Shown here piece after piece: positions 1,857-59,842 of a stretch of DNA of 64,000 bases. Source of the stretch: a virus. Within the stretch, counting starts at the first letter, position 1. Each line of letters opens with the position of its first letter. The DNA is taken from IMG/VR virus record IMGVR_UViG_3300034105_001970; one strand, given 5' to 3'. The notes beneath the pieces were generated by a model that searched no databases, was not told where the DNA came from, and saw only the letters and a program-made list of their open reading frames with translations. Position numbers and translations under genes: made by a program.

Positions 1857-3260
1857 ATGGCAAAAAAGAAAATCCTGTTATTGGCAGATGATTTAAGAAT
1901 GAGTAGTGGTATTGCTAATATGAGTAAACAATTAGTAATGGGTTCACTACAACACTATGATTGGGTTCAATTGGGTGCAGCAGTAACACATCCAGAAGAA
2001 GGTAAAATTTTAGATTTATGTGATGATGTTCGTGGTAGAACCGGAATTGAAGATGCATATCTAAAAATTTATCCATCAACAGGGTATGGAACGGCAGAAA
2101 AGTTAAGACAAATATTAGAAATTGAAAAACCTGATGCTATTCTACACTTTACAGACCCGAGATATTGGATATGGTTATATGATATTGAACATGAAATCAG
2201 ACAACATACACCAATATTCTTTTACCACATTTGGGATGATTTACCAGACCCTAAGTACAATAGAGATTACTACGAAAGTTGTGATTGGATAGGTACTATT
2301 TCAAAACAAACATTTGGTATTACAAATAGAGTTTGGAGTTTAACCTCAAAAGATAGATGGAAACAACCTGAAAATTGGCAAGTGAGTTATGTACCACATG
2401 GTATTAATCCGGAAGATTATAAAGTAGCAGATGTACCTGCCGATTTCAAAAAGAAAATATTTGGGGATAAAACATATGATTTCGTATTGTATTGGAGTAA
2501 TAGAAATATCAGACGAAAACAACCGATTGAAGTTATATACGCATTCAAAGAATTTGTAGCAACACTTTCACCTGAGCAAGCTAAAAAGACCGTATTGTTA
2601 ATGCATACCCAACCGGTGGATGATAATGGTACAGATTTACCTAGAGTTATTGCAGATTGTGCACCTGAAATCAATGTAGTATTTGATACAGGTAGATGGA
2701 ATGAAACTGAATTAAACTATCTTTATAATATTGCAGATGTTACAATTAATATAGCATCTAACGAAGGATTTGGATTAGCAACTGCAGAATCTATTATGGC
2801 AGGAACACCAATTATAGTAAATGTAACGGGTGGTATACAAGACCAATGTGGATTTGTATTCCAAAATGAAGATGTGCATGGCAATTGGGATTATACAAGA
2901 CCATCGGATTATGTTAAGTGGGGTACTCTACATGATTGGAGATTATGGAAAGATAAATTAAAGTGGGGAGATTGGGTAACACCGGTTTGGTCAACATCTC
3001 GTTCATTTACAGGTTCAGTACCTACACCTTATATATTTGAAGACCATATTGATTATGTTGAAGTAGCAGATTCAATCCGTCATTGGTATGATATGAGTAG
3101 AGAACAAAGAAAAGAAAAAGGAATATTAGGTAGAGATTTTGCACTAGGAGTTGGTGGATTAAGTGTACAAAATATGTGTCAAACTTTAATCAATGGAATG
3201 GATGGTGCATTTACGAATTGGAAACCTAGAAAAAAATACGAATTATTCAAAATAAAATAA
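1857..3260 (+). CDS. glycosyltransferase, GT4 (GT-B) family
   Basis: NEGFGLATAESIMAGTPIIVNVTGG matches the GT4 E-x7-E/EGFG motif; preceded by TAAGTTATG junction. Confidence 0.7.
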   Translation: MAKKKILLLADDLRMSSGIANMSKQLVMGSLQHYDWVQLGAAVTHPEEGKILDLCDDVRGRTGIEDAYLKIYPSTGYGTAEKLRQILEIEKPDAILHFTDPRYWIWLYDIEHEIRQHTPIFFYHIWDDLPDPKYNRDYYESCDWIGTISKQTFGITNRVWSLTSKDRWKQPENWQVSYVPHGINPEDYKVADVPADFKKKIFGDKTYDFVLYWSNRNIRRKQPIEVIYAFKEFVATLSPEQAKKTVLLMHTQPVDDNGTDLPRVIADCAPEINVVFDTGRWNETELNYLYNIADVTINIASNEGFGLATAESIMAGTPIIVNVTGGIQDQCGFVFQNEDVHGNWDYTRPSDYVKWGTLHDWRLWKDKLKWGDWVTPVWSTSRSFTGSVPTPYIFEDHIDYVEVADSIRHWYDMSREQRKEKGILGRDFALGVGGLSVQNMCQTLINGMDGAFTNWKPRKKYELFKIK

Positions 3261-3263
3261 GTT

Positions 3264-4553
3264 ATGGCAGAAATTAAAAAACCTTTAGTAGTAGTTCAAG
3301 GACCGGTAGCAACGCGAAGTGGTTACGGAGACCATAGTAGAGATTTAGTTAGAAGTTTAATTAGTTTAGATAAATACGATATTAGAATTGTATCAATGAG
3401 ATGGGGTAGTACTCCTATGAATGGTCTAAATGCAAAAAATGATAGTGATAAACAAATCATAGATAGAATTGGATTACCTATTGATAGAACACCCGATGTG
3501 TTTATTCAAATTACAGTTCCTAATGAATTTGAAAGAAAAGGAACATATAATATCGGTATTTCAGCAGGTATAGAAACAACGGTTTGTCCTATTGATTGGA
3601 TACATGGTTGTAATAAAATGGATTTGATTATAGTTCCATCTGAATTTTCTAAAGATGTATTAATAAAAACATCGTATGTAGAAAAAAATAATCAAACACA
3701 ACAAGTTATTAATAATTTCAAAATTACAAAACCAATTGAAGTTCTATTTGAAGGATTTAATGATGCAACATTTGGTGCGGCAGAAGTTCCATATATTACG
3801 GAATTAGATGCAATCAAAGAAGAGTTTGCATTCTTAATTACCGGGCACTGGTTACAAGGTCAATTAGGACATGATAGAAAAGATATTGGAATGACAATCA
3901 AAAGTTTTTGTCACGCTTTTAGTAATGAAAAACAAAAACCAGCATTGGTATTAAAAACATCATCCGCTGGGTTTAGTGTAAGAGATAGAGAAGATATGGC
4001 GGGCAGAATAGAAACACTTACAAATGAATTTGGTGATAAGTGTCCTTCAATCTATTTACTACATGGTGATTTAACTGAAACCGAAATGCATGGGTTATAT
4101 GAACATCCAAAAGTAAAAGCAATGGTATCATTTACACATGGTGAGGGATTCGGCAGACCTCTATTAGAATTCAGTTTGACGGGTAAGCCGGTAATTGCAT
4201 CTAATTGGAGTGGTCATTTAGATTTCTTAAAAAGTGGTGCAGTATTATTAGAGGGTGAATTAAAACCCGTAGATAAATCGGCACAAAATCAATTTATTAT
4301 AGATGGTAGTCAATGGTTTTATGTAAATTATTCTAATGCAATTAATAAGTTAAAAGATATTTATAAGAACTACAACACATATAAAGTTGAATCTAAAAAA
4401 TTGGGTAAGTATAATAACGAAAATTTTAGTTTACAAAAAATGACTAAATCATTTGACACTATTTTAACTCAATATGTTCCAACAATAAAACAATTTATAC
4501 CATTGAATTTACCAACCCTTACTAAGATAAATGAATCAGATACATCATTATAG
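3264..4553 (+). CDS. glycosyltransferase, GT4-like
   Basis: HGEGFGRPLLEFSLTGKPVIASNWSG motif near C-terminus; starts 4 nt after upstream stop. Confidence 0.55.
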   Translation: MAEIKKPLVVVQGPVATRSGYGDHSRDLVRSLISLDKYDIRIVSMRWGSTPMNGLNAKNDSDKQIIDRIGLPIDRTPDVFIQITVPNEFERKGTYNIGISAGIETTVCPIDWIHGCNKMDLIIVPSEFSKDVLIKTSYVEKNNQTQQVINNFKITKPIEVLFEGFNDATFGAAEVPYITELDAIKEEFAFLITGHWLQGQLGHDRKDIGMTIKSFCHAFSNEKQKPALVLKTSSAGFSVRDREDMAGRIETLTNEFGDKCPSIYLLHGDLTETEMHGLYEHPKVKAMVSFTHGEGFGRPLLEFSLTGKPVIASNWSGHLDFLKSGAVLLEGELKPVDKSAQNQFIIDGSQWFYVNYSNAINKLKDIYKNYNTYKVESKKLGKYNNENFSLQKMTKSFDTILTQYVPTIKQFIPLNLPTLTKINESDTSL

Positions 4554-5076
4554 AAAATATTTTTATAAAGAAATAGTAACCTCTATTAATGAAGTTAAGA
4601 ATGGCGGATTTTATAGATTATATGGTTACAAATATGAAGATACAGGAGTAAGTGAATCATATAGTGCCGCAACAACCCCATTGTTATTGGTATTAGGTAA
4701 AAATTCACAAAAAGGATTGATACATTGTATAAAATTAAATGAACTACCATTAACTAGATTTTTAAAATTATATGATGATATTCAAAACCAAGCATACACT
4801 CGTGAATTAATTAAAGAAATCGAAGATAAAGATGCAACGTTTAATGAAAATTTAGGATATGACACGGGTAGGAAAGCAATCTTAATTGATAAAAGTGGTA
4901 GAACCTTTTATAAAAAATCAGTTAAAAATAATAGAGATTTGCAAAAATATGATGTATATCGCACTTACAAAAAGAAAAATGTAAAGATGATTAAAGAGTT
5001 GTATTTTGATGTATCTAAACTAAAACCAAAATTAGGATTCAAAAATTTTAATACAGATGAACAAGAAATAATATAA
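4531..5076 (+). CDS. hypothetical protein
   Basis: 181-aa ORF overlapping upstream gene end by 23 nt; no recognisable motif. Confidence 0.35.
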   Translation: MNQIHHYRKYFYKEIVTSINEVKNGGFYRLYGYKYEDTGVSESYSAATTPLLLVLGKNSQKGLIHCIKLNELPLTRFLKLYDDIQNQAYTRELIKEIEDKDATFNENLGYDTGRKAILIDKSGRTFYKKSVKNNRDLQKYDVYRTYKKKNVKMIKELYFDVSKLKPKLGFKNFNTDEQEII

Positions 5077-5077
5077 T

Positions 5078-5704
5078 ATGAAAATAAGTTATGCAATTAC
5101 GGTTGTAAATGAAATAAAAGAAATACAAACATTATTACCACTACTAATAGAAAACAAAAGAGAAGTAGATGAAATTGTTGTTCAATATGATAATCAAAAA
5201 GTGACGGTTGAAGTACTTGAATATCTTAATGATTTGACATTTGACAAAAAAATTGATAAAACAATTGGATATCCTCTGAATGGAGATTTTGGAACATACA
5301 AACAACATCTTACACAAAATTGTACGGGTGACTGGATATTCCAATTAGATGCAGACGAAACAATAGACCCAATATTAATACAGGGATTATCAAATATATT
5401 AGAAGGTAATGATACTATTGAAATGTTTTTTATTCCTAGAATTAATATAGTGAATGGATTAACAGAATCACATATTCAAAAATGGAGATGGAATGTAAAT
5501 GAGAAAGGATGGGTAAATTTTCCTGATGTTCAAGGTAGATTATATCAAAACAAACAATCTATTTTTTGGGCAGGTAAAGTACATGAACAATTACAGGGAT
5601 TTGAAAGTTATACAATATTTCCACAAGATGAAACATATTGTATTAAACACATTAAAGAAATAGAAAGACAAGAAAAACAAAATGCTCTTTACGAAACGTT
5701 ATAA
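5078..5704 (+). CDS. glycosyltransferase-like (GT-A/GT2-like fold)
   Basis: N-terminal beta-alpha (ISYAITVVNE..IVVQYD) and QLDADE DxD-like motif. Confidence 0.4.
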   Translation: MKISYAITVVNEIKEIQTLLPLLIENKREVDEIVVQYDNQKVTVEVLEYLNDLTFDKKIDKTIGYPLNGDFGTYKQHLTQNCTGDWIFQLDADETIDPILIQGLSNILEGNDTIEMFFIPRINIVNGLTESHIQKWRWNVNEKGWVNFPDVQGRLYQNKQSIFWAGKVHEQLQGFESYTIFPQDETYCIKHIKEIERQEKQNALYETL

Positions 5705-6186
5705 TGAATTGGATAATTTTCACAACCGAATGTAGTGGTAAAACAACATTTTGTTCACTAAACAATAATAAATTAAAAGATTATGATTTAGTGGATTGGG
5801 ATGTGATAAAAGCATTACCAAATGGTGAATATGAAAATGAAATATTATTAATAGATGTTATGTTAGAATTGGTTAATAAAGATAATCAGATTTATTTAAC
5901 AAATATATTTCCACCAAACTTTATATTAGAGTGTAAACATTATTATAAAAATATTAAATTTGGAATAATTAATTTGAAAGAAGAAGAATTAAAAATACAA
6001 ATTAAAAGTAGACATAACCCAAATTATAATTCAAATTACATTATTGAAAAAAATAATGAATTAAAAAAAATAGTTGATAAAAAAAATACATTTAAAAGTT
6101 TTAAAAGTTTTAAAGAATTTAAAGAATATTTTGAACCATCATTAATTAATATCAAACCGATGGTACAAAGAATAATAAGATTATGA
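5704..6186 (+). CDS. hypothetical protein with imperfect P-loop
   Basis: N-terminal IIFTTECSGKTTF resembles Walker A but lacks the first Gly; ATGA overlap with neighbours. Confidence 0.3.
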   Translation: MNWIIFTTECSGKTTFCSLNNNKLKDYDLVDWDVIKALPNGEYENEILLIDVMLELVNKDNQIYLTNIFPPNFILECKHYYKNIKFGIINLKEEELKIQIKSRHNPNYNSNYIIEKNNELKKIVDKKNTFKSFKSFKEFKEYFEPSLINIKPMVQRIIRL

Positions 6187-6824
6187 AAGAAGTAAGTGTA
6201 GTTTGTACAAGTTGTAATAGACCAGATTTGTTAGAGAAAACATTAGAAAGTTTTTTCAAATATAACACATATCTAATTACCGATTTCAATGTAATTGATG
6301 ATAGTGCTGTAATTGGTTGTAATGACCATTTAAAAGAAAAATTCCCATCGGTAAGTTTTTGGTACAACAAAACTAATATAGGACAAGTTGCAAGTATAGA
6401 TAAAATGTATGGATATGTAATTACTCCGTATGTTTTTCATATGGAAGAAGATTGGGAATTTTACAAAGAAGGATTTATAGAAGCTTGTTTAGAAATTATA
6501 GATTTAGATGATAAGATTATTTGTGTTCAAACAAGAGACCCAAATGATATAGGGCATCCACTTTTACCTGATGTATATTTAACTCCAATGGGAAATAAAG
6601 TACAAAGAGTAAGTTGGGGATTTGATGGACATTGGCACGGATTTACATTCAATCCTGCACTAAAGAAAATGAAAGATTATCCAGAAGATGGGTATAAACC
6701 AATAGGTAGAGAATTAGAATTAAGTAAATATTATTATTCATTAGGATACTTTGCTATGGCATTTACAGAAGGATATTGTAAGCATGCTGGGTGGGGTAGA
6801 CACATAAAAGATGTAGGCGAATGA
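6183..6824 (+). CDS. glycosyltransferase family 2-like
   Basis: VSVVCTSCNRPDLLEKTLESF and VIDDS (DxD) as in GT2 N-termini. Confidence 0.45.
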   Translation: MKEVSVVCTSCNRPDLLEKTLESFFKYNTYLITDFNVIDDSAVIGCNDHLKEKFPSVSFWYNKTNIGQVASIDKMYGYVITPYVFHMEEDWEFYKEGFIEACLEIIDLDDKIICVQTRDPNDIGHPLLPDVYLTPMGNKVQRVSWGFDGHWHGFTFNPALKKMKDYPEDGYKPIGRELELSKYYYSLGYFAMAFTEGYCKHAGWGRHIKDVGE

Positions 6825-7939
6825 GTTACGAATTAAAAGACATTTCAGTAGTAATACCAAGTTATAATAACTTAGAGTATTTAAAATTAGTATATAAATC
6901 AGTTAGAGATATTTCTGACGATATTGAAGTTATACTATATGGGGATGGGTGTAATGATGGAACAAATGAATGGTTATTATCATTAAAACATACAAATACA
7001 ATTACCCACATATATAGTGAAAAACTTGGACATCCTGTTTTATACGATTATGGATTTCAAATAGCAAGTAGACCTGTAATAGGGATTTTGCACGCAGATA
7101 TGATAGTTCACAAAAATTTCTTTGAGAATATTTTGAAGTATGTGGGAACAAATAAAATCGTATGTGGTATGTGTGTAGAGCCACCAATTCATCCAGCAGG
7201 TAAGGAAAAATATCAATTAGATGCAGGTACATATCCAAATGAGTTTAATCAATCTAAGTTTGATGAGTTCTATGAAACGATAGAAAAAAATACAACTAAC
7301 AATGGTATATTTGCACCTTGGTTTGTATTGAAAGATGAGTACATTAATATATTAGGTGGACACGATACAAATTTTCAAACAATCGAAGATGTTGATATTT
7401 TTCATAGAATGGTAATTGGTGGATTTGATATTATACAAAGTAGAGATGCATTAGTTTATCATTTTACACAAAGAGGGCATAAATTTGAAGGTGGTGATTT
7501 ACAAAAAGTACAAGATGATTATCAAAGTAGAATAGATACCGATACAAAAAAATATATTAGAAAATGGGGGTGTATATGGTATTTTGATATAAATCACAAA
7601 CCAATTCCAATGCCAAAATATAACATTGGGTTAATCATTTATAATGCACCACAAGATTTAGTTATATTTTTAGAACCATACTTTACAACTATATACACTA
7701 ATAATTTGGGTCAAGTTGAGGGTGTTAGTAAGTTAAAAGATATTAATGATGAACTTACCAATGATAGTTTTGTGACAATAAATGCAGAACATCTAACAAA
7801 CGAAAACATAGAATTTTTAATGAAAGTACCATATGTATTAAAACAAAATACACAAATTGGGCAATTCAAAATAGATATATTTAATCTATATATAAAAAAC
7901 TACAATGAATATCAGAATGAATTAATTAAAGTAAATTAA
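6821..7939 (+). CDS. glycosyltransferase family 2
   Basis: ISVVIPSYNNLEYLKLVYKSV...EVILYGDGCNDGT is the canonical GT2 signature. Confidence 0.65.
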   Translation: MSYELKDISVVIPSYNNLEYLKLVYKSVRDISDDIEVILYGDGCNDGTNEWLLSLKHTNTITHIYSEKLGHPVLYDYGFQIASRPVIGILHADMIVHKNFFENILKYVGTNKIVCGMCVEPPIHPAGKEKYQLDAGTYPNEFNQSKFDEFYETIEKNTTNNGIFAPWFVLKDEYINILGGHDTNFQTIEDVDIFHRMVIGGFDIIQSRDALVYHFTQRGHKFEGGDLQKVQDDYQSRIDTDTKKYIRKWGCIWYFDINHKPIPMPKYNIGLIIYNAPQDLVIFLEPYFTTIYTNNLGQVEGVSKLKDINDELTNDSFVTINAEHLTNENIEFLMKVPYVLKQNTQIGQFKIDIFNLYIKNYNEYQNELIKVN

Positions 7940-9002: not shown

Positions 9003-9845
9003 ATGTATAAGATATTAGCGGTTGGTACTTCATTTACACATGGATTAGCGTTACACTTCTATAAAAGAAAAGAACTAGGATTACCATTAGATTTTAATAC
9101 AATTACAAATGATGAGTTATATTTTAATTATAAACATTCATATTCTAGTATTTTAGGTAAAAAATTAGATTTACCTAATCAAATCGTATCAAGTTCGGGT
9201 TCAAGTAATTTTTTTGAAGGATTAGAGATTATAAAAAAATCAATTAATTCGATATATTTACCCGGTGATGATAAGTTTGACCATAATTTTTTTAAACCAA
9301 AGGTAGTTATATTGCAACTTACAAATGTTACACGAGATTTTTTTATATACGAAAATAAAATTTATAAATTAGATTTTGAAACATATGATGGTTTTTTAAA
9401 ATCAAAAAAAGAATTAATAGATAATATAGATGTTGTAGATAAAAAGGATTTTATAACTAAGTTAGAGTTGGAATTAGAATTATTTACATTAGATGAGGTA
9501 CGTTGGAGAAAAAATCAAAGTGCATATTTTATAAGTAAGATTAATATACTACATAAAATTTTAAAAAGTAAAGGTGTTATATTAAAAGTAATATCATATT
9601 CAGATGATTACAAAGAAAATTTGGATAAATTTGATGAGAATATATTTGTAAAAATTCAACATAATGGTATTTCATTTTCTAATATCTTTGATTTTGTAAC
9701 TATAAATAAATTAAGAGTAGTAGATGATTTAGGAATAGATGATTCGCATCCTAATTTTGAAGCACATGAAATTGTAGCGGATAATATATATAATAGTATA
9801 TTAAATGATCCTGGATATTATACATCATTTCATTCAATTATTTAA
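9003..9845 (+). CDS. SGNH/GDSL-hydrolase-like paralogue
   Basis: N-terminal ILAVGTSFTHG block and C-terminal DDSHPNFEAHEIVADNI (SGNH block V DxxHPN-like). Confidence 0.4.
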   Translation: MYKILAVGTSFTHGLALHFYKRKELGLPLDFNTITNDELYFNYKHSYSSILGKKLDLPNQIVSSSGSSNFFEGLEIIKKSINSIYLPGDDKFDHNFFKPKVVILQLTNVTRDFFIYENKIYKLDFETYDGFLKSKKELIDNIDVVDKKDFITKLELELELFTLDEVRWRKNQSAYFISKINILHKILKSKGVILKVISYSDDYKENLDKFDENIFVKIQHNGISFSNIFDFVTINKLRVVDDLGIDDSHPNFEAHEIVADNIYNSILNDPGYYTSFHSII

Positions 9846-11653: not shown

Positions 11654-12415
11654 ATGAAAGGAATAAAGTTTTGGACAAAAGATGGTTTTGATGTTGCTAC
11701 CTGTAAATGGCGACTACACGAACGAGTTAATCAAAAATTTAATGGAAGTGGTTCAGACCAAAGTGGCAACTGCTGGTATACCTATAATGAATTAGGATAT
11801 AGAGGTGATTCTATTTACAAAGATGGATTTAGAATTATGAGTATTGGTGATTCACACACCGAAGGTGTTGGTGTTAACGATGAGGAAACATGGTCACATC
11901 AATTATGTAAACTTATACCGGGTGCAGTAGATTTGAATTTTGGATTTGGTGGTAGAAGTAATGACTATATTTTCAGATGTTTACAAACTTACTTTAAAAC
12001 AGCAAGACCACAATTAGTTAATATAATGTATACATATCCATCTCGAAAAGAATATTATACAGGTACTGGTGACTTAGAACCATTTCACGTTAATCCTTGG
12101 GGATATTTTTTAGAGGATGATTTGGGCAAAAAAGAGCATGCTGGTTTTTTAGAAATTACACAAGATGAAAATGATTTAATTAATTGGTATAAAAATCATC
12201 TATTGATTACATATTTTTGTAAATTAAATAATGTTCCTATGGTATGGAATGGTAGTTTCTTAAATGATACTACAATTAAGGAAGAAAATAGATTTGATGG
12301 TGATTATGACAATTTCATAGATAAATCGGCAGATATAAAACACGCTGGAGCAGAGCATAATAAAAAATATGCTAAAAAGTTGTATAATTTCTTAAAACAA
12401 AACGATGTCATTTAA
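11654..12415 (+). CDS. SGNH/GDSL-hydrolase-like paralogue
   Basis: IMSIGDSHTEGVGV block I and C-terminal GAEHNKKYAKKL. Confidence 0.35.
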   Translation: MKGIKFWTKDGFDVATCKWRLHERVNQKFNGSGSDQSGNCWYTYNELGYRGDSIYKDGFRIMSIGDSHTEGVGVNDEETWSHQLCKLIPGAVDLNFGFGGRSNDYIFRCLQTYFKTARPQLVNIMYTYPSRKEYYTGTGDLEPFHVNPWGYFLEDDLGKKEHAGFLEITQDENDLINWYKNHLLITYFCKLNNVPMVWNGSFLNDTTIKEENRFDGDYDNFIDKSADIKHAGAEHNKKYAKKLYNFLKQNDVI

Positions 12416-13247
12416 ATTTAAACAAATATATCTCAATGGTTGTTCGTTTATGTGGGGCATGGGACATTCTAATCCAAATACATTCCAATTTTTTGAAGAA
12501 ACAAACGATATAGATACATCACATCCTGTACATTATAACGGAAAAACACCATTTAATAATTACGATTGGGTTAGGCAAAAATTTAACATTGGTGGTAGAT
12601 TAAAAGAACATTATGGTATCAATGTAATAGATGAATCGATATATGGTGGTTCATTACAAAGAGCAGTTCGTAAAACAATGAATTGGATGCTAAATAATAA
12701 TGAATTAGTTAAAGATACTTTATTCATATTAGAGTGGCCGATTGGAGTTAGACGTGAAATGTATATTGAATTACAAAAACGATATGTAAATTATACGGCA
12801 AATTTTGATAACTACGATAGTATGGACCCGTATATTCATAGAGTATTAATTAATGAATTTGCACCAAACTTCTTTGCATCTGATATAGCTTTTTTAGAAG
12901 ATTTACATTCATTGATTGGCGTTATATCCTATATTAAACAAAATGGTGGTGAATATTTAATTTTATTAGATGAATTTCCGATAGAACAATTAAATGAAAC
13001 TACATTAAAATATGTAGGTGAAAATAAGATTAAAGATGTAATTGACAAATTAATACTACCAAATACTATAACATTTACACATAGTGATAAAGCAGATATA
13101 AAATCGTTGTTAGAATATTACAGAGATTATGAAAAAGCAACAATCACAAAAGATACAAATTCAGTAGAGGTGGATGAGCATAATTCAATTAGAGGTTCTA
13201 GACTTATTGCAGAACAAATAATAAAAAACATAAATGAACTTAGTTAA
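12405..13247 (+). CDS. SGNH/GDSL-hydrolase-like paralogue
   Basis: IYLNGCSFMWGMG block I variant and C-terminal VDEHNSIRGSRLIAEQI (block V-like). Confidence 0.4.
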   Translation: MSFKFKQIYLNGCSFMWGMGHSNPNTFQFFEETNDIDTSHPVHYNGKTPFNNYDWVRQKFNIGGRLKEHYGINVIDESIYGGSLQRAVRKTMNWMLNNNELVKDTLFILEWPIGVRREMYIELQKRYVNYTANFDNYDSMDPYIHRVLINEFAPNFFASDIAFLEDLHSLIGVISYIKQNGGEYLILLDEFPIEQLNETTLKYVGENKIKDVIDKLILPNTITFTHSDKADIKSLLEYYRDYEKATITKDTNSVEVDEHNSIRGSRLIAEQIIKNINELS

Positions 13248-41751: not shown

Positions 41752-42091
41752 TAAAATAATCATAGGTATCTTATTTGGTATCTTAGGACAGATTGGTACA
41801 TTCTTACAATTACAAGGTAGTTACAAGTATGGTTGGTATGAGAAGTATCAATGGTTGGTTATATTAGCATCATTACCACTAGGATGGGTTTACATACAAA
41901 GTGTAAACTCATTCATAGCTGGGTTTGGTGGGCAGATATGGCCTTCTCGTTTGTTAGGATTTGGTATCGGTGTAATTATATTTACCTTGATGTCACACTT
42001 TTTATTCAAAGAGCCATTAAGTTTAAAGAATGCATTATGTTTAGGATTGGGATTTGTAATAGTAGGTATTCAATTATTTGTTAAAAATTAG
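41741..42091 (+). CDS. integral membrane protein (4 TM)
   Basis: Hydrophobic helices; embedded track ORF 41851..42084 is in another frame and was rejected. Confidence 0.4.
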   Translation: MNYNKIIIGILFGILGQIGTFLQLQGSYKYGWYEKYQWLVILASLPLGWVYIQSVNSFIAGFGGQIWPSRLLGFGIGVIIFTLMSHFLFKEPLSLKNALCLGLGFVIVGIQLFVKN

Positions 42092-42092
42092 T

Positions 42093-42638
42093 ATGAGAAT
42101 ATTAATTATTGCTAATATGAGGAGTGGTTCTACAACTTTATTAAAATGGTTGGGAATAGAGTTGGGGTACAAAACAATAAACGAATTACATAATCCACTA
42201 TTTCCGGTTGAGTTTGAGTTAAATAGTAATAACTTTATTGTTAAAGAAATACATCATCATATTAAAGATATACCAAATTATATATCAAAGTTTGATAAAG
42301 TAATAACACTAACACGTACTGATACATTTGATAGTGCAGTTAGTTTATTATATTGTGATGAAAAACCAAATTATGATTATCATTCAAAATATAAAATAAA
42401 TGATAAATGGATTTCAGACAGAATATATGAAATACATAGAATAGAAAGAGAATTTATTAAACAAAATAAAGATATCGTTAGTATAGATGCATTTCATATA
42501 ACATATGAAGGCATTTTTAAAACAAAAACCGAACTTAAAAAATTATGTGAATATCTAAATATAGATGTTAATAATTTAAAAGCAAGTGAATTGTTAAATA
42601 ATAATAACAGGTATCGTAATAATAATAAAATGATATGA
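42093..42638 (+). CDS. sulfotransferase-like protein (Stf0/Sulfotransfer_3-like)
   Basis: MRILIIANMRSGSTTL (PAPS 5'-phosphosulfate-binding-like RSGST) and TRTDTFDSAVSLLY 3'-PB-like; track start TTG 42078 replaced by ATG 42093. Confidence 0.4.
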   Translation: MRILIIANMRSGSTTLLKWLGIELGYKTINELHNPLFPVEFELNSNNFIVKEIHHHIKDIPNYISKFDKVITLTRTDTFDSAVSLLYCDEKPNYDYHSKYKINDKWISDRIYEIHRIEREFIKQNKDIVSIDAFHITYEGIFKTKTELKKLCEYLNIDVNNLKASELLNNNNRYRNNNKMI

Positions 42639-44220: not shown

Positions 44221-45378
44221 ATGACATTTTATTACGATTCTATTTATGGTTTAGATTTTAAATATTTTGAATCAATTGGATATAATCTTATAGAATTACA
44301 ACATAATGATTTTAGTTACATTGGTAATCTTAAAGATAATGATGTATTATTTACTACATTAGATACAATTGATAATATAAACAAATCGGTAAATCCAAAT
44401 ATAAAATTAAATATATTTTTGTTTATTAAACATGAATATTGTAATGAACATAGGCGTAAAGCAATTATAGAAAGTAGAAATACAAATCATACTATATATT
44501 TCTTAACAACGCATTTAGATGTGTATAGTATTGAAAATGATTTATCATTTAAAAATAGATGTTATCCATTTACAAACTTATTTTCAAAAGTAGCCTATAT
44601 ACCAAACAATAATAGAACAAAGAAGTTTAATTTCTTTAATAGGTCTATAAATTTACGAAGACTTAAAATATTTGAATTGCTAAAAAAAGCAGATATTCAA
44701 TTAAGCCAATGTTATTATACATTTGGTAATATAATAAAAAAAGATACGTTTGGTAATCTTTCTACAATACAAGATTTTATTAATTATAGAAATAGACCGG
44801 GTGGGGGACGTAGTGGTAATGATGATTTAATAATTGATACCGAATACTTAAATCAATTTGTAAATGAGTTTTTTATATATGAGAACAAAGATGCGGTAGC
44901 ATTAGGACAGATACAAAGCTCAGATACAAATGATATGTATAATACTATTAATACAAACTCATTAGATTCATATATTTCATTTACTATTGAAAGTAGTGGT
45001 GATAGTGGTGATGATTTAAGGTTGACAGAAAAAACAATTAGATCTTGGTTATGTAAAAATATATTCTTATCTTTACAATGTAATGGGTTTAACTCAGCAT
45101 TAAGAGGATATGGAATCGAAACATTTGAAGATGTATTTGGATTAGAAATTGGATGGGATGATAATAAAACGGAAACTGAAAGAATAGAAATATTTGTAGA
45201 TGCTTTAAAACGAATCAATGAATTATCAATTGATGAAGTTAAAGCAATATATGAATCGGATAATGTTCAACAAAGATTAGAAAAGAATTATAAATTTATA
45301 ATGGAAGGCTTTAATCCTACCAATACAATATTAGAAATAGAAAAATTAATTGGTTATGAAAATAATGTTCCTAAGTGA
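44221..45378 (+). CDS. hypothetical protein, possible glycosyltransferase with FucT-like motif
   Basis: ISFTIESSGDSGDDLRLTEKTIRSWL resembles GT10 FENS...TEK motif; similar size to 27230/28479 proteins. Confidence 0.35.
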   Translation: MTFYYDSIYGLDFKYFESIGYNLIELQHNDFSYIGNLKDNDVLFTTLDTIDNINKSVNPNIKLNIFLFIKHEYCNEHRRKAIIESRNTNHTIYFLTTHLDVYSIENDLSFKNRCYPFTNLFSKVAYIPNNNRTKKFNFFNRSINLRRLKIFELLKKADIQLSQCYYTFGNIIKKDTFGNLSTIQDFINYRNRPGGGRSGNDDLIIDTEYLNQFVNEFFIYENKDAVALGQIQSSDTNDMYNTINTNSLDSYISFTIESSGDSGDDLRLTEKTIRSWLCKNIFLSLQCNGFNSALRGYGIETFEDVFGLEIGWDDNKTETERIEIFVDALKRINELSIDEVKAIYESDNVQQRLEKNYKFIMEGFNPTNTILEIEKLIGYENNVPK

Positions 45379-46060: not shown

Positions 46061-46205
46061 GATATGATAATGAGTTATGTAATAGGAATCGGTTGCAGCT
46101 TTATAATGGCTGCAATCGTTTCATTTTTTTGGGTAAGGGGAATTGATTATATGAAAGAAAATCATCCCGATTACAAAGGTGAAGATTTTTTAAATTGGAA
46201 CGATA

Positions 46206-46877
46206 ATGAAAAATAAACTTTGGGTATTTGGCTGTTCGTTTTCAACCGGAATGAATTTGATTCAACCTACTGATGAAGATACATTAAGAATTAGTTGGCC
46301 GTATGTATTGGCGGATAAATTAGATTTAGAATTAGTAAATAGTGCACGTCCTGGACAATGTAATTGGGTATCTATATTGCAATTCATAGATAGGAGAGAT
46401 GAAATTCAGCCAGGCGATAAGGTTGTATTTGAATTTACATTCTTTGATAGGTATAATATTTATCCAACAAAAGCACAATTAATAGATTTAGAAGCTTATT
46501 TTAGTAGACATTCTAATGGTGGAACATTTGCAGATAATTTAGTAGAAATGAGGAAGGTTAATTATAATTGGTTTAATAAACAAGTAAACAATTGGTGTAT
46601 TAAAAAAAAAATATCAATTTACTATTGGAGTGCAGAAGGACAAGTTCATTCAGATTTTAAAAAATACAAAGAGATTATTACTTTTATACCTGCACCCAAT
46701 TCAACAAACGAATTTACAAACTATTCGTTTTATACAAAGTGGCAAGACCAATTAGAGGAACAACATATTATAGAACCGAATGGTAATATTGATAAACATT
46801 TTAATGAGTTAGGACATCAACGAATGGCTAATCATTTTTTTGAATATATTAATACTTATAGGAAATCGTTATTATGA
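46206..46877 (+). CDS. SGNH/GDSL-hydrolase-like paralogue
   Basis: LWVFGCSFSTGMN block I variant (Asp to Cys), DKHFNELGHQRMANHF block V-like; C-terminal 20 codons identical to next gene. Confidence 0.5.
   Translation: MKNKLWVFGCSFSTGMNLIQPTDEDTLRISWPYVLADKLDLELVNSARPGQCNWVSILQFIDRRDEIQPGDKVVFEFTFFDRYNIYPTKAQLIDLEAYFSRHSNGGTFADNLVEMRKVNYNWFNKQVNNWCIKKKISIYYWSAEGQVHSDFKKYKEIITFIPAPNSTNEFTNYSFYTKWQDQLEEQHIIEPNGNIDKHFNELGHQRMANHFFEYINTYRKSLL
46818..46877 (+). repeat. 60-bp direct repeat, copy 1 (3' ends of tandem SGNH genes)
   Basis: CAACGAATGGCTAATCATTTTTTTGAA(T/C)ATATTAATACTTATAGGAAATCGTTATTATGA; second copy 47588-47647; 1 mismatch. Confidence 0.7.
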
Positions 46878-47647
46878 ATAAGTTATGGATTTTCGGTGAT
46901 AGTTTTTCACATGGGCACGGCTTTAATAATTCTGACCCATTCTATGAAGTTACTTTATCCGATGATATTGATAAAAGATATTGGTGTGAAATAGTAGCAC
47001 ATGAATTAAATTTGGAACTACATAATCACGCTAGAGTAGGTGCATCCAATGACTATATATTGGACAACATTTTAAATAACGCAGATAAGATTGGAGAAAA
47101 CGATTATGTTGTAATCCAAGCTACATATTATAGTAGATTTGATGTTCCACACAAAAGCTCATTTAGTTTTTTACATACAATTGTTAGATATGATGATAGT
47201 AGACATATTAACGTAAACTTAATAGGTGATGATGATATGACTGACCATAAACACGAAACATTAGTAGATTTTGCAGTTTATTTTGCAGGATTACCGGCAT
47301 ACAAACACAGACAACTTAATAGATTTGAAAAATTAATAAATTTACTAAAAACAAAAAATGTTGTATTTTGGTGTTTAGAATCTCCAGATTCTCCAAATAT
47401 ACATGAAATTGAAATTCTAAAAAAACCATACTTTCTTAAATTTGAGAACAAATATATAGGTGGAGAGGATTGTTTCAAAGAACACAAAGCAACTATTTCC
47501 GATGAAAGTAATGGTAAGATGCAAGATGGACATATTGGTGTAAAAGGACAACAAATCATGTCAGTAGAAATACTAAAAAAGTTTAACCAACGAATGGCTA
47601 ATCATTTTTTTGAACATATTAATACTTATAGGAAATCGTTATTATGA
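46874..47647 (+). CDS. SGNH/GDSL-hydrolase-like paralogue
   Basis: LWIFGDSFSHGHG (GDS-x-x-xG), QDGHIGVKGQQIM (DGxH). Confidence 0.55.
   Translation: MNKLWIFGDSFSHGHGFNNSDPFYEVTLSDDIDKRYWCEIVAHELNLELHNHARVGASNDYILDNILNNADKIGENDYVVIQATYYSRFDVPHKSSFSFLHTIVRYDDSRHINVNLIGDDDMTDHKHETLVDFAVYFAGLPAYKHRQLNRFEKLINLLKTKNVVFWCLESPDSPNIHEIEILKKPYFLKFENKYIGGEDCFKEHKATISDESNGKMQDGHIGVKGQQIMSVEILKKFNQRMANHFFEHINTYRKSLL
47588..47647 (+). repeat. 60-bp direct repeat, copy 2
   Basis: See 46818-46877. Confidence 0.7.
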
Positions 47648-48375
47648 AAGTTTTAGTTATCGGTGATAGTTGTACTGATGTATTTGTATATGGTTATTGT
47701 AAAAGATTATGTCCCGAAGGACCTGTGCCAATATTTGAACCGAGTAGAACAATTACCAATATGGGTATGAGTGGTAATGTAGTAGCTAATCTTAAATCGT
47801 TGGGAGCTGAGAAAGTTGAGTTGGTTACTAACAAAGAACAAATTACAAAGACTAGATATGTAGAGGAAAAAGCAAATCATATGATTATCAGAATTGATAG
47901 TAATGATAAGGTTAGTAATTCATTTGATGTAAAAAGAGTTCCATTCAATGATTATGATGCAGTTATTGTAAGTGATTATGACAAAGGATTTCTATCATTA
48001 TCAGATTTGAAATTGATTAGTGATTCACATCCATTAACTTTTATAGATACAAAGAAACCATTATCAGCAGAAATGCGTAATTATACATTCATTAAGATAA
48101 ATGAAGTTGAGTGGGAAAATTGTAAAGGACAGGAATACGAAATGTGGCGAGAAAGATTAATTATAACAATGAGTGAACGAGGTGCAATGTATGATGGTAT
48201 TACATATCCGGTTAACAACGATATTGAGGTTAGAGATTTGAGTGGTGCAGGTGATACCTTTATGGCTTCATTAGTAGTTAGTTATTTAAAAACAAAAAGT
48301 ATAGAAGTTAGTATTGAATACGCAAATGATTGTGCAACAAAAGTTGTACAAAAACGTGGTGTAGTTACATTGTAA
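47644..48375 (+). CDS. PfkB-family sugar kinase, RfaE domain I / HldA-like (heptose 7-phosphate kinase family)
   Basis: VLVIGDSCTDVFVYGYCKRLCPEGPVPIF aligns with RfaE-I N-terminus (ILVVGD...SPEAPVPV); DLSGAGDTFMASLV anion-hole/GAGD motif. Confidence 0.7.
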   Translation: MKVLVIGDSCTDVFVYGYCKRLCPEGPVPIFEPSRTITNMGMSGNVVANLKSLGAEKVELVTNKEQITKTRYVEEKANHMIIRIDSNDKVSNSFDVKRVPFNDYDAVIVSDYDKGFLSLSDLKLISDSHPLTFIDTKKPLSAEMRNYTFIKINEVEWENCKGQEYEMWRERLIITMSERGAMYDGITYPVNNDIEVRDLSGAGDTFMASLVVSYLKTKSIEVSIEYANDCATKVVQKRGVVTL

Positions 48376-48410
48376 TAATAAAAACATATATTTATATAAA
48401 ACAAAACAAA

Positions 48411-48677
48411 ATGATAAATTTAGAAGCATTTGGACCATTTTTAGAGCACGCTGGAAATGTAGAATTAGTAGAAGCAAAATTATTTGGACTTATTGTATTA
48501 AATAAAGATAATACATTTTCAACAATAACAATTGCTGAAGACGAATTAGTGAAATACGAACATGTTAATTTTTTAGACATCGAAGATGATGAATTAAAAG
48601 AAAGATTAGTAGAAGAAGCACATTTAGTAAGTATTTCAAATCCAGCATGGCCTATTGCTAAGTTGATTGAATGGTAG
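48411..48677 (+). CDS. hypothetical small acidic protein
   Basis: Track ORF 48330 overlaps the kinase; first in-frame ATG after kinase stop is 48411. Confidence 0.3.
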   Translation: MINLEAFGPFLEHAGNVELVEAKLFGLIVLNKDNTFSTITIAEDELVKYEHVNFLDIEDDELKERLVEEAHLVSISNPAWPIAKLIEW

Positions 48678-48694
48678 TATATTAATACTAAATA

Positions 48695-49426
48695 ATGGTT
48701 ACACAAAATAAATTATGGTGCTTCGGTGATTCGTTTACCGCAGGTGATGGGTGTATTCGGTCACCTAAAGAAAACCCATATTCACCAACTACGATTTCGT
48801 ATAGAAAATATTTAAACAAACAGGATGGAGAGGAAATTCTAATCTATCCTGATTATGTGTCTAACCATTTCAATTTAGAATTAATCAATACAGCTAGTGG
48901 TGGTGCATCAAATGAAATGATATTTGATAATGTATTTACACATATAAAAGATATAAAGAAAGATGATTATATTATAATTGGAATATCTTATTTTGAAAGA
49001 TTTGATGTTTTCATAAATAATATATTATCACCAACTAACATAAATAGTATATCAACAACATCGGATATTGTATTTCAAAATAATGCTTTAAGTAGACAAG
49101 GATTATTAGAAATTGTAAACAATAGAAATAATAAAGTATTTAAAGATAGATTGATTCGACAAATCAAAGCAGTAAAATATTTATTAAATTCGATATGTGA
49201 TAATGTATGTATATGGACACATGATAATGATATATTAGATGGTGTAGATACCGACGTATTTTTAATACCAGATAAATATAAAAAATTTAGTTCATTTGTA
49301 TATGATAATAAAATGGCATTAGCACAAGAAACAAATGGTGAGGTTCCCGATGGACATTTTGGTGCACCCGGTCACAAACTTTGGGCAGATATTATAATAA
49401 AATATTTTGAAAATGGAACAAAATAA
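48695..49426 (+). CDS. SGNH/GDSL-hydrolase-like paralogue
   Basis: LWCFGDSFTAGDG and PDGHFGAPGHKLWADII. Confidence 0.55.
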   Translation: MVTQNKLWCFGDSFTAGDGCIRSPKENPYSPTTISYRKYLNKQDGEEILIYPDYVSNHFNLELINTASGGASNEMIFDNVFTHIKDIKKDDYIIIGISYFERFDVFINNILSPTNINSISTTSDIVFQNNALSRQGLLEIVNNRNNKVFKDRLIRQIKAVKYLLNSICDNVCIWTHDNDILDGVDTDVFLIPDKYKKFSSFVYDNKMALAQETNGEVPDGHFGAPGHKLWADIIIKYFENGTK

Positions 49427-50090
49427 TATTTGGATATTTGGATGTTCACATTCTACTACTATTTGGAAAGATGAAGCAAAAACCGATGGTATAAAACCAT
49501 ATGGAAAATATTTAAGTGAATGGTTTGATTTAAAATATAATCAACCGGATAAGAGTGGACAAGGTAATGATAGTATTGTTACCGAAATCTTTAAAAATAT
49601 CAATAACATAAAAAAAGATGATTTACTAATAGTACAATTTACACATTTTAGTAGGTCCGTTTGGTATGATACACAGCAAAAAGAAATATACAACGGTGCA
49701 TGGGCAGAACGTAAAGGAATTAATCCAAATCCAAATGATATTAATAATGAAAGTTGGTATAAAATTACAGACCTAAAATCACAACATCCAATAATACAAA
49801 CACATATTTTCTTAAAAGAATTAAGTAAATTGATTGGATTTAAATATTATGTGTTTTTCTATGAAGATTGGATGTGTAAAGATTACGAATACTTTTTTAG
49901 AGAGGATGTAAATTCAAAAGTTACAATAAAATTTGGTGATGAACAATTTAATACATTGGGTAGATACACTAAGCATTATAAATTAACAACTTTGGCGGAA
50001 AGTGGTGAAATGCAAGATGGTCATATGAGTACGGAATCACATAGACGAGTTGCAGAAATGATACACAAATACATAAATGAAAATGGATAA
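49407..50090 (+). CDS. SGNH/GDSL-hydrolase-like paralogue
   Basis: IWIFGCSHSTTI and QDGHMSTESHRRVAEMI. Confidence 0.5.
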   Translation: MKMEQNNIWIFGCSHSTTIWKDEAKTDGIKPYGKYLSEWFDLKYNQPDKSGQGNDSIVTEIFKNINNIKKDDLLIVQFTHFSRSVWYDTQQKEIYNGAWAERKGINPNPNDINNESWYKITDLKSQHPIIQTHIFLKELSKLIGFKYYVFFYEDWMCKDYEYFFREDVNSKVTIKFGDEQFNTLGRYTKHYKLTTLAESGEMQDGHMSTESHRRVAEMIHKYINENG

Positions 50091-50871
50091 GTTATACATA
50101 TATGGATGTTCACATAGTGCCGGCAATCTATTAGGATATTCACACTTTGAAGATCCAGGATTACCTAGAATAAAGAATGATATTAATTTTATGGAAACTG
50201 ACTATACCAAATGGTTAGGTAGAAAGGGAATGCCATTTTTTGAAATAATAGCAAATGAATTGAACTTAGATTGGATATTAAGAGCAGAAGGTGGTGATAG
50301 TAATTCACAACAATTTAAAAAGCTATTAAAAGACCTACCAAATATAAAAGAAAATGATGTTGTATTATTTCAATTAACACATTATCATAGATTTGAAGTT
50401 CCGTATAAAAACAATGAAGGAAAGTGGGAAACTACTGCATTTCAAGCCGGCGGTAGTTTAAAATATGATAATGATAAATATCGTCAATTTTATATGGCAC
50501 ATTTAGATTTTGAAGATTGGATATCGATAAATTCTGTTGTAATAATATTATCATTATTAAATTACATTAAAAGTAATGTAACTAAAAATGTATTTTTATG
50601 GAGTTATCCAAATATAGAGCAGTGTATAAAAGAAAATACATCTATATTAAATTTTCCTAATTTAATTAAATTTGAATGTGACAGAGGAATTGTAGAAACG
50701 GCATATGAATGTAGTAATCATATAGATTGGAATACTGATTTGATTATTGAATTTGAAACTAATAAAATAGTAAAAGATTCACATTTTGGAGAAACTGGAC
50801 ATAAATTTATAGCCAAAAACATACTTAATTACATAAATCATAATACTTATATAAAAGAAAAAGGAGATTAA
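50077..50871 (+). CDS. SGNH/GDSL-hydrolase-like paralogue
   Basis: LYIYGCSHSAGN and KDSHFGETGHKFIAKNI. Confidence 0.5.
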   Translation: MKMDKLYIYGCSHSAGNLLGYSHFEDPGLPRIKNDINFMETDYTKWLGRKGMPFFEIIANELNLDWILRAEGGDSNSQQFKKLLKDLPNIKENDVVLFQLTHYHRFEVPYKNNEGKWETTAFQAGGSLKYDNDKYRQFYMAHLDFEDWISINSVVIILSLLNYIKSNVTKNVFLWSYPNIEQCIKENTSILNFPNLIKFECDRGIVETAYECSNHIDWNTDLIIEFETNKIVKDSHFGETGHKFIAKNILNYINHNTYIKEKGD

Positions 50872-52977: not shown

Positions 52978-53170
52978 TATGGAAAAACATTACGCAAAAG
53001 AAATAATAGCATGGGCAGAGGAAGCTAAAGAAACATTATTAATTCGTAAAGAAATAATATTAGATGATGATTTAACCGATGAACAATTAGGTGCTATTGT
53101 TAGAATAATGTATCGTGCAAAAGTAAGAGCAGAAAATGATTCAATTGAAAGATGTAAAAAATTTATATGA
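52958..53170 (+). CDS. hypothetical small protein
   Basis: 70-aa ORF. Confidence 0.3.
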   Translation: MINGLINMEKHYAKEIIAWAEEAKETLLIRKEIILDDDLTDEQLGAIVRIMYRAKVRAENDSIERCKKFI

Positions 53171-53994
53171 CAAACAAACATAATATAGAAATCGTATTTG
53201 CAACCGGATGTTCACATAGTGCAGGTGGCGGATTAGAAACTATTAAGTATGCAGACGATAAGGTAACATTAGTACGTGATATCTACAAAGAAAAATACAA
53301 TGTATGGTGGGATAATCAATTAGAAGTTACATATGCTAGTAGATTAGCAGATATGCTAGGATGTAAGGTAGAAAACAAAGCAGCAAGTGGTGGTGGAACT
53401 GGTAGAGCAGTTAGAGAGGCATTTGATTTTGTAAAAAGAAATTGGGATAAAAAAGATAAGTTACTATTGTTATTAGAATTACCCGCATACTTTCATAGAT
53501 TAGATATGTATTCAACCAATCTAAATAGTTGGGTAGTAGTAAATCATTCAGTTAATGAGAATGGTGTAAGAGACCATATATACGCAACACGTGGGTATTA
53601 TATGGATGGGCACCATGGTGATTTTAAAAATACAAATAAAGATGGTGCATTAGAAAAATACTTAGATAACTTTATAGATTATGATATTGAAGTTGCTAAA
53701 ATGAATAGAGAGGCAGAGATGTTATTGACATTTTTAAAATACCATAAAATTAAATTTATATATTTTGAAGGTGGTCAAAAACTAAAAGGTGTTTTGGATA
53801 AATCATTATTATCAAACGAATTAAATATAGAAGGGCATACTGATTTTCATCATTGGATAATGAAAAACGGATATACTATAAAGGATGAATTAGGTGCTGA
53901 TATATTAAACGATTTACATCCTGGTTATTTCGGCAACATAAAGTTTGCTGAGTTTTTATATGGATATGTAAATGAAAATTGGGATATATTATAA
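53167..53994 (+). CDS. SGNH/GDSL-hydrolase-like paralogue (divergent)
   Basis: IVFATGCSHSAGGG block I variant; C-terminal LHPGYFGNIKFAEFL. Confidence 0.45.
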   Translation: MTNKHNIEIVFATGCSHSAGGGLETIKYADDKVTLVRDIYKEKYNVWWDNQLEVTYASRLADMLGCKVENKAASGGGTGRAVREAFDFVKRNWDKKDKLLLLLELPAYFHRLDMYSTNLNSWVVVNHSVNENGVRDHIYATRGYYMDGHHGDFKNTNKDGALEKYLDNFIDYDIEVAKMNREAEMLLTFLKYHKIKFIYFEGGQKLKGVLDKSLLSNELNIEGHTDFHHWIMKNGYTIKDELGADILNDLHPGYFGNIKFAEFLYGYVNENWDIL

Positions 53995-54776
53995 TGAAAG
54001 GATATTTTTTACCAGATTATAATATTGCACTACAATTTACTAATAAAACAGGTAGTTTACAAATGATAAATACCTTTATGTTATTTTTTAATTACAATAA
54101 TATAAAATATGAGGAGGCTACTATATTATATAATTCACCTAATCCATTTGATGAAAAAACGCAATTTTATATTTTTACAAGAAATCCAATAGATAGATTT
54201 ATTACAACGTATAATTGGTTTATGAATTCAATTGATGGACCGGAAAATGTTTTAAATTTAAAAAAGAAATATAACATACCTGATATAGAATCATATATCA
54301 ATAACTATACTAAGATAATGTACGAAATAGATGATACACATTATCAACCACAAATATTTGAAATTTTAGCGTTTGAACGAAATAAGTTTAATTTTGATTC
54401 AAAATCAATAAAAGATTCTCTTTTTAAAGGATATAATACTAATTATACATTTCTAAATATGGAAATGATTTCAACATTTTTAGAAAATTTTACAAATACA
54501 TATCAATATTCGCATGGTAATCTTTTAGATTTATCGTTACCTAAAACGGATTACGAATGCAAACTAATATTAGATTTAATACCAGAATTTGTATCTATGG
54601 ATATAGAATCAAAAAAACATTTTAATTTTTTATATTTGGCAATTAAATCAATTTTAGACAAAGGTCATCATCATACTAATAGCAGAATTGAATTAGATAC
54701 TCCAAAACTCCGTGCAATTATAGGAAAAATACCTATTATTAAAATAGAAACACAATTATATGGATATTCTTTATAG
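53979..54776 (+). CDS. carbohydrate-sulfotransferase-like protein (Sulfotransfer_2-like)
   Basis: FTNKTGSL (5'-PSB-like K-T-G-S) and FYIFTRNPIDRFITTY matching the CHST 3'-PB motif F-x-F-V-R-D-P-F-E-R-L-V-S-A-Y. Confidence 0.45.
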   Translation: MGYIIMKGYFLPDYNIALQFTNKTGSLQMINTFMLFFNYNNIKYEEATILYNSPNPFDEKTQFYIFTRNPIDRFITTYNWFMNSIDGPENVLNLKKKYNIPDIESYINNYTKIMYEIDDTHYQPQIFEILAFERNKFNFDSKSIKDSLFKGYNTNYTFLNMEMISTFLENFTNTYQYSHGNLLDLSLPKTDYECKLILDLIPEFVSMDIESKKHFNFLYLAIKSILDKGHHHTNSRIELDTPKLRAIIGKIPIIKIETQLYGYSL

Positions 54777-59629: not shown

Positions 59630-59842
59630 ATGAAAACAGCATTAGAAACACTATATGATAACTATGGTAACGGAATGGACGAACTATGGAGAAAATCAGA
59701 TGTAGGTGATTTAGATGATTGGCTTTATGATAATTGGTTAGTGGAAGACTCTACCGGAAAATTTAGAATATTAAAAATAGAAGAGTTTGATTATTTACTT
59801 AAAAATGATAATAACTTCGCAAATAAATGGAATAACATATGA
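59630..59842 (+). CDS. hypothetical small protein
   Basis: 70-aa ORF. Confidence 0.3.
   Translation: MKTALETLYDNYGNGMDELWRKSDVGDLDDWLYDNWLVEDSTGKFRILKIEEFDYLLKNDNNFANKWNNI

Follow-up and report, generated by a model that had tools for sequence, protein, structure and literature searches.

We analysed a 64,000-nt stretch of DNA from IMG/VR virus record IMGVR_UViG_3300034105_001970 (hereafter the window), in which 131 open reading frames (ORFs) were scanned, and found that nine of them form one protein family of diverged paralogues. These genes, five of which lie in an array at 46206-50871, are an uncharacterised and nearly virus-restricted branch of the SGNH/GDSL serine-hydrolase fold; the fold and the predicted catalytic competence of the proteins are well supported, and we hold both with high confidence. 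As to function, O-acyl tailoring of phage-made glycoconjugates is, at a little under even chances, the leading reading for this phage.

One family of nine diverged paralogues

The nine members, each named hereafter by the first position of its gene, are given below with their motifs (block I near the N-terminus, block V near the C-terminus) and with the E values from hidden Markov model (HMM) or BLASTP searches.

9003..9845, plus strand: family member, 280 aa, block I G-T-S, block V DDSH; HMM E 8e-12 (independent profile) and 3.9e-35 (A2 profile)
11654..12415, plus strand: remote family member, 253 aa, with a 60-aa N-terminal extension; independent HMM E 1.4e-8 over residues 64-250
12405..13247, plus strand: family member, 280 aa, block I G-C-S, block V DEH; HMM E 5.7e-19
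46206..46877, plus strand: array copy 1, 223 aa, G-C-S; HMM E 1.9e-26, BLASTP to 46874 E 3e-18
46874..47647, plus strand: array copy 2, 257 aa, G-D-S, C-terminal tail duplicated; HMM E 6.5e-56
48695..49426, plus strand: array copy 3, 243 aa, G-D-S; the member used for modelling
49407..50090, plus strand: array copy 4, 227 aa (225 aa from the ATG at 49413), G-C-S; HMM E 2.7e-31
50077..50871, plus strand: array copy 5, 264 aa, G-C-S; HMM E 1.6e-40
53167..53994, plus strand: family member 2.3 kb downstream of the array, 275 aa, G-C-S; HMM E 4e-21, core-five HMM E 4e-10

By position, 9003, 11654 and 12405 (cluster A) lie beside glycosyltransferase genes, and the five genes of the array (cluster B) are followed downstream by 53167. 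An earlier note on this DNA, made from its letters, had described 46206-50871 as a tandem array; this is right as to the five copies, but a kinase gene and an 88-aa ORF separate the second copy from the third. The five array genes match one another (BLASTP, E 1e-4 to 1e-19), and an HMM built from them finds 53167 (4e-10), 9003 (3e-6) and 12405 (6e-6), the next ORF of the window having an E value of 0.13. When the HMM is instead built on independent representatives from the databases, with 48695 added, all nine are recovered at E values from 1e-8 to 1e-57, and the next ORF lies at 0.25. This kinship, at pairwise identities of 20-36%, bears out the description of the copies as diverged paralogues. 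The count of at least ten, made at the same time, was too high: the ORFs lie where they had been placed, their translations carry the motifs and their relationship goes far beyond chance, but there are nine copies and a tenth was not confirmed. Two candidates for it were rejected, namely 46064-46216, a 50-aa hydrophobic ORF with GIGCSF (HMM E 0.07), and 47644-48375 (VIGDSCTD), which encodes a PfkB/heptose-7-phosphate-kinase-like protein.

The remote member 11654 has its block I G-D-S at residue 65, the Arg that is invariant in the family (Arg131) and a canonical D-x-x-H block V (D-I-K-H). It aligns to the family profile with 89% probability (hhalign, E 2.4e-6) and to Pfam Lipase_GDSL_2 below threshold (E 0.014, 16.3 bits; cut-off 32.9), and its AF2 model, made from the family alignment, is partial, with a predicted local distance difference test (pLDDT) score of 64 and confident positions for residues 60-135 and 230-253 only. 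Member 12405 is 100% identical to database protein P0019, the contigs of which reach at most 95 kb (at most 129 kb for members of its cluster), and shows a weak match to Pfam DUF6071 (E 0.0045, 17.1 bits; gathering threshold 27). An orthologue of 9003 with 45% identity is present in the related jumbo-phage contigs L007-L009.

Modelling of 48695 gave a confident SGNH fold, a three-layer alpha/beta/alpha arrangement with a central parallel sheet, in which the positions of the secondary-structure elements are consistent with blocks I, II, III and V. None of the nine proteins scores above threshold in Pfam, NCBIfam or PHROG, and PADLOC gave no matches for them. Among 73 family representatives, 16 match Lipase_GDSL, 12 Lipase_GDSL_2 and 5 DUF6071 at E <= 0.001; a few homologues reach the 27-bit DUF6071 threshold, the Pfam entry of which carries no function and on which a literature search found no paper. 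The Pfam search that had been proposed as a check therefore gave a divided answer, in that a minority of homologues match the GDSL models, whereas most members and all nine window proteins stay below the cut-offs of DUF6071 (PF19547), Lipase_GDSL (PF00657) and Lipase_GDSL_2 (PF13472). The SGNH/GDSL-like kinship first proposed from the motifs is nevertheless upheld by the modelled fold and by the representatives that reach these three families; of the two outcomes that would have spoken against it, a non-hydrolase fold and the loss of the Ser/His pair in most copies, neither was found, the pair being present in nine of nine.

All nine are stand-alone proteins of 223-280 aa, and in eight of them block I begins at residues 8-14. 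We found no signal peptide, hydrophobic leader or membrane segment in the nine sequences, and no second domain, fibre, anchor or trimerisation domain.

A departure from the SGNH active site

Residues are numbered here as in 48695, and conservation was counted across 329 domains. Gly11 and Ser13 of block I are found in 100% of the aligned sequences, with D, C or T as the middle residue; Arg102 is present in 96%, Asp219 in 94% and His221 in 98%, and in each of three separate alignments Arg102 does not vary. The eight aligned window members all have Gly70, the equivalent in 11654 being G-G-R-S-N, and family-wide this position is G in 87% and A in 6%. In an hhalign alignment to E. coli TesA, the sequence of which was checked for identity against 1ivn, Ser13 falls on Ser10 (the nucleophile) and Gly70 on Gly44 (oxyanion). 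Blocks I and II are recognisable: strand 1 ends in a G-D-S-like motif that holds the nucleophile Ser, and the Gly of block II is conserved.

The remaining blocks are different. The Asn of block III (GxND) is missing and the consensus there is T/S/P-x-x-x-R, with Arg102 at 96-100%; an Asn (Asn73, 66%) sits three residues past the block II Gly. The D-x-x-H of block V is replaced by D-x-H in eight of the nine copies and in 94% of the family, and in a HMMER alignment to 6v8i the canonical Asp lies one position earlier. According to a review of SGNH enzymes (PMC9487903), the canon has the block III Asn and an Asp at His-3. The invariant Arg at block III and the Asp at His-2 seen here are the true departures from it. 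Both were overlooked in the earlier note, which had stressed the change of Asp to Cys in block I. That change is real (G-C-S for G-D-S in five of the nine window copies) and, as had been stated, Ser is kept in these copies; Cys is, however, the second commonest state in the family (33%, against 52% for Asp), and no active-site innovation.

Compared with the SGNH/GDSL superfamily (TesA 1IVN, Nostoc alr1529 1VJG, CE2/CE3), the family is alike in the N-terminal Gly-x-Ser after strand 1, in the block II Gly and in the C-terminal Asp/His followed by a G-H helix. It differs in that the block III Asn is absent and an invariant Arg lies 4-5 residues past strand 3, in the placing of Asp two rather than three residues before His (eight of nine copies), and in a variable insert of about 100 residues with a beta-hairpin past block III; sequence identity to the superfamily is just 9-18% and the Pfam gathering score is missed. 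The same review (PMC9487903) records one precedent for the Arg, Bacillus cereus PatB1, the oxyanion hole of which is served by an invariant Arg and not by the block III Asn. PatB1, an O-acetyltransferase of the DHHW family, resembles our proteins as an SGNH-like acyl-enzyme catalyst with Arg in place of this Asn, and we use it as a working model for Arg102, although the present family keeps the block II Gly and has its Arg in the block III region, and no sequence relationship between the two was detected. Arg102 may by this analogy be an oxyanion-hole donor, or it may bind an anionic group of the substrate. The two conserved departures make the family a test case for how an oxyanion hole can be built in this fold.

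Taking these features together, we infer that each protein is a small single-domain enzyme working in the cytoplasm of the infected cell; the lack of a signal peptide, a membrane segment and a second domain argues for intracellular action and against a tail-fibre role. Ser13, which follows strand 1 and opens helix 1, would be the nucleophile and His221 the base, helped by Asp219, while the oxyanion hole would be formed by the backbone NH groups of Ser13 and Gly70, with Arg102 and/or Asn73 as third donor in place of the canonical Asn. Such a site would hydrolyse or transfer acyl esters, most likely acetyl. The poorly conserved 100-residue insert between blocks III and V is most likely a substrate-binding lid and, since it differs between paralogues, the copies would handle different substrates or positions.

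Array evolution and distribution of the family

Orthologues outside the window reach 59% identity for 46874, 84% for 49407, 74% for 50077 and 41% for 53167. As they are far closer than the paralogues within the window, the duplications are old. Four orthologue pairs between the window and the IMG/VR relative L010 have ratios of non-synonymous to synonymous substitution rates (dN/dS) of 0.12-0.32, with 0.05-0.23 for neighbour genes, and the copies are under purifying selection.

The relative L010 is without 46874 and 49407. Three repeated elements bear on such changes in copy number:

46818..46878, plus strand: 61-nt direct repeat, copy 1, at the 3' end of 46206 and its stop/start overlap
47588..47648, plus strand: 61-nt direct repeat, copy 2, at the 3' end of 46874
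49440..49451, plus strand: 12-mer GGATGTTCACAT, the codons of block I G-C-S-H; found again at 50104-50115 and 53206-53217

The two 61-nt repeats are identical at 60 of 61 positions, are spaced by 770 nt, which is one gene unit, and bracket 46874 exactly, and L010 has a single copy. Because the repeat is shared, 46206 and 46874 have the same C-terminal 19 residues and 46874 carries the C-terminal helix of the family twice. The 12-mer is the same in three paralogues that share 23-26% identity elsewhere, and between 50077 (50104-50123) and 53167 (53206-53225) 19 of 20 nt are shared; codon constraint or gene conversion could account for this identity. In L010, the orthologue of 50077 is hybrid: it has the N-terminus of 49407 up to a switch inside GGATGTTCACAT, a signature of unequal crossover between tandem paralogues. 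More distant relatives have extra copies that lack an orthologue in the window. We propose that the array gains and loses whole genes by unequal recombination at short repeats, those in the catalytic-motif codons included. Multi-copy arrays and recombination at the catalytic motif point to a repertoire function for which phage biology as yet has no explanation. A rapidly diversifying receptor- or capsule-modifying family, which the earlier note had offered as its alternative, agrees with the dynamic copy number but not with the low dN/dS, the old orthologues and the absence of a signal peptide or fibre domain.

A family profile matched 11,855 cluster representatives at E <= 0.001 and 4,210 at E <= 1e-10 (clusters at 50% identity), and these roughly 11,900 clusters define a large enzyme family that has no name, paper or characterised member. 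A motif-plus-tblastn scan of IMG/VR gave 119 loci; all 80 that were fetched have 27-34% G+C, and some of the contigs are 200-335 kb long. A similar scan of 185,579 species genomes gave two short contigs, both from metagenome-assembled genomes of Bacteroidota. The family thus seems plentiful in viral contigs, with hardly any members in cellular genomes, a contrast that is indicative and not exact, since the motif patterns differed slightly between the two scans; its members appear nearly confined to uncultured low-GC aquatic phages, many of them jumbo-sized.

Arrays are the rule in uncultured viral contigs: among 85 loci of at most 20 kb, at least two copies were found in 66 and three to five in 32. 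Two or three family domains are fused in some database proteins, and in the longer homologues (P0199, P0185 and others) the partner domains were uninformative, being repeated family copies only. By tblastn, three family members found no match in the GenBank phages, nor did the DNA of the array, and no paper on SGNH arrays in phages was found in the searchable literature. The statement that no described phage has such a set of paralogues therefore holds for the GenBank phage collection and this literature, but arrays are common in uncultured viral contigs. The expansion of the family is real and well supported, extends beyond this window and appears to be undescribed.

Genomic context and possible functions

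Glycan-related and adjoining genes in the two clusters are the following.

1857..7939, plus strand: five consecutive glycosyltransferase genes upstream of 9003 (Pfam): GT4-like at 1857-3260 and 3264-4553, GT2 at 5078-5704, 6183-6824 and 6821-7939
47644..48375, plus strand: PfkB-family sugar kinase-like gene, 243 aa; Pfam PfkB 4e-13, phrog_8133 5e-79
48411..48677, plus strand: 88-aa ORF between the kinase gene and copy 3, called as a gene in all related contigs; no family match
53979-54776: 265-aa ORF overlapping the end of 53167, no database family; invariant NKTGS, TRNPxxRFxxxY and HxxPQ

From these neighbours we suggest, tentatively and at a little under even chances, that the nine SGNH-branch enzymes carry out O-acyl tailoring, by addition or removal, of the products of the phage glycosyltransferases and sugar kinase. 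The synteny of the glycosyltransferases with cluster A is kept in L007, L008 and L013. The N-terminus of the kinase matches the D-beta-D-heptose 7-phosphate kinase 4e84 (E 8.7e-9), its start overlaps the stop of 46874 (translationally coupled) and it is 98% conserved in L010; PHROG 8133, to which it belongs, has no assigned function. On an unrelated 186-kb contig, genes for glycosyltransferases, NDP-sugar enzymes, a carbamoyltransferase and an APS kinase are found no more than 10 kb from a four-copy array. If the substrates are the glycans made by phage glycosyltransferases, the family would offer a handle on the glycan tailoring of virions or DNA in environmental jumbo phages. A sulfotransferase gene had also been counted in this context, but the assignment of 53979-54776 was rejected, with no support in Pfam, NCBIfam, PDB sequences or PDB profiles; what is left is a resemblance of its motifs to those typical of family-2 (PAPS-)sulfotransferases.

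Several observations weigh against the glycan reading. In 32 non-redundant loci from other phages, where genes within three genes of a family member were counted as near and the distance control was internal only, GT2, GT4 and GT7 genes were not enriched (0, 2 and 6 genes), while prolyl-4-hydroxylase (P4H)-like 2OG-Fe(II) oxygenases were (26 of 229 near against 11 of 293 far genes, odds ratio 3.3, p 0.001). The structural neighbours of the fold include lipases and thioesterases besides carbohydrate esterases, and all window proteins fall below the Pfam gathering scores, the best Lipase_GDSL/Lipase_GDSL_2 score being that of 48695 (21.2 bits, with 23.6 needed). Finally, Asp219 lies one residue nearer His than in every canonical SGNH enzyme and so may not serve as the triad acid. 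The glycan-editing repertoire proposed in the earlier note is accordingly narrowed: the five glycosyltransferases and the heptose-kinase-like gene make it plausible here, as a link local to this lineage, but the other-phage loci do not extend it to a general rule.

The strongest rival takes up the oxygenase association and holds that these are non-glycan tailoring enzymes of accessory islands. Their partners would be prolyl-hydroxylase-like 2OG-Fe(II) oxygenases, perhaps joined by radical SAM enzymes, and their substrate a protein, peptide or small molecule that has been hydroxylated; (de)acylation of a newly made hydroxyl for host takeover or counter-defence would be one example. Among 149 neighbour genes, 2OG-FeII_Oxy_3 was the commonest Pfam family (19 genes), followed by Radical_SAM (9), frequent but showing no dependence on distance, and HSP20 (7); 2OG genes occur in 17 of the 32 loci, are directly adjacent to a family gene in eight and overlap one in L012 and L013, and the virus-restricted distribution and variable copy number of the family also fit. 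However, no 2OG oxygenase was found in the window, and PADLOC recognises none of the nine proteins as a defence component. Aquatic phage islands in general often hold 2OG oxygenases and HSP20, and the distance control was an internal one; systems that join a hydroxylase to a glycosyltransferase also exist, so that the association is compatible with glycans. We consider this explanation rather unlikely but a serious rival to the glycan reading; if the substrates are not glycans, the oxygenase link would point to a modification pathway still to be described.

A bolder reading goes further. The family would be a virus-specific acyl-transfer class with a re-built active site (Arg oxyanion hole, shifted Asp), kept as a recombining array that diversifies O-acyl patterns on phage glycoconjugates, hydroxylated virion proteins or DNA and so alters recognition by host defences or receptors, with crossovers in the motif codons shuffling lids and copy number. 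Taken as a whole, we regard this as speculative and somewhat less probable still than the oxygenase-linked explanation.

Lipolytic activity (as phospholipase, lysophospholipase, thioesterase, or lipid A or lipoprotein deacylase), by which host membranes would be remodelled or degraded, for lysis or to scavenge fatty acids, is suggested by the closest solved structures, which include GDSL lipases, the lysophospholipase PlaA, TesA and Vibrio haemolysin/phospholipases, and by weak Pfam matches to Lipase_GDSL families. The lipase structural matches are, however, no better than those to carbohydrate esterases, signal peptides and membrane anchors are absent, the adjoining genes encode glycosyltransferases, a sugar kinase and phosphoesterases and no recognisable lysis proteins, and lysis hardly explains nine diverged copies, which together make this explanation improbable.

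Virion-borne receptor-destroying enzymes that deacetylate host O-antigen or capsule at adsorption, with paralogues widening the host range, would account for the different copy number of close relatives, and the family profile does weakly match the staphylococcal phage tail lysin gp59. But the SGNH domains of tail fibres and tail lysins (G7C gp63.1, 4QNL; 80alpha-type Tal gp59, 6V8I) have a canonical D-x-x-H and form part of large virion proteins, at the C-terminus or internally, whereas the window proteins are stand-alone, multi-copy and outside a structural module. With no fibre, anchor or trimerisation domain in the nine, PHROG tail matches absent or at chance level, no structural genes nearby in the annotated parts of the window and dN/dS well under 1, we hold this role to be very improbable. 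Chance motifs in an AT-rich genome, or inactive pseudo-enzymes, for which the lack of above-threshold Pfam, NCBIfam and PHROG matches could be cited, are refuted by the full-length HMM matches, the thousands of related clusters, the confident SGNH model, the invariant catalytic residues and the purifying selection.

As for the phage itself, the window has about 30% G+C, nearly all its ORFs are on the plus strand and the junctions between them are short or overlapping; tRNA and Rfam searches of the window gave no matches, and a promoter/terminator scan gave no signal above that of shuffled sequences. Since its gene order was found again on many metagenome contigs, and a relative with 45-86% protein identity lies on a 243-kb contig, the window is best taken to belong to a large uncultured phage. 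That contig also encodes a SusC-like outer-membrane receptor. In the related jumbo-phage contigs L007 (13847-17125) and L009 (8094-11372) the gene encodes a 1092-aa SusC/TonB-dependent-receptor-like protein (CarboxypepD_reg and OMP beta-barrel) and is not at a homologous place in the window; it is unusual for a phage to carry such a gene, which hints that the host may be a member of the Bacteroidota. The evidence for this host is weak, and assignment to the published 'moraphage' lineage, jumbo phages of Bacteroidota (PMC12619734), would be no more than a lead.

Other genes annotated in the window are listed below.

19857-23409: CobT/MoxR-like pair, a cobaltochelatase CobT-like protein of 714 aa (weak PHROG match) and a MoxR/CobS-type AAA ATPase of 410 aa
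In the window: PD-(D/E)XK nuclease and non-specific endonuclease
In the window: ATP-dependent DNA ligase and HAD phosphatases
In the window: metallophosphoesterase, FG-GAP protein, SPFH protein and UvdE

For the 714-aa CobT-like protein, the proteins matched in Microcystis phage Mel-JY01 and in an uncultured phage of 484 kb are only 34% identical. A 186-aa ORF at 42078-42638 has homologues in 7 of the 32 unrelated loci, which had been retrieved solely for carrying the esterase family, and its product may be a co-occurring partner of that family. Outside the family, three further pairs of paralogues were seen in the window by BLASTP: 27230-28486 with 44221-45378 (2e-5), 13234-13578 with 41741-42091 (1e-6), and 59839-60039 with 60564-60890 (1e-18, 84% identity across 37 aa).

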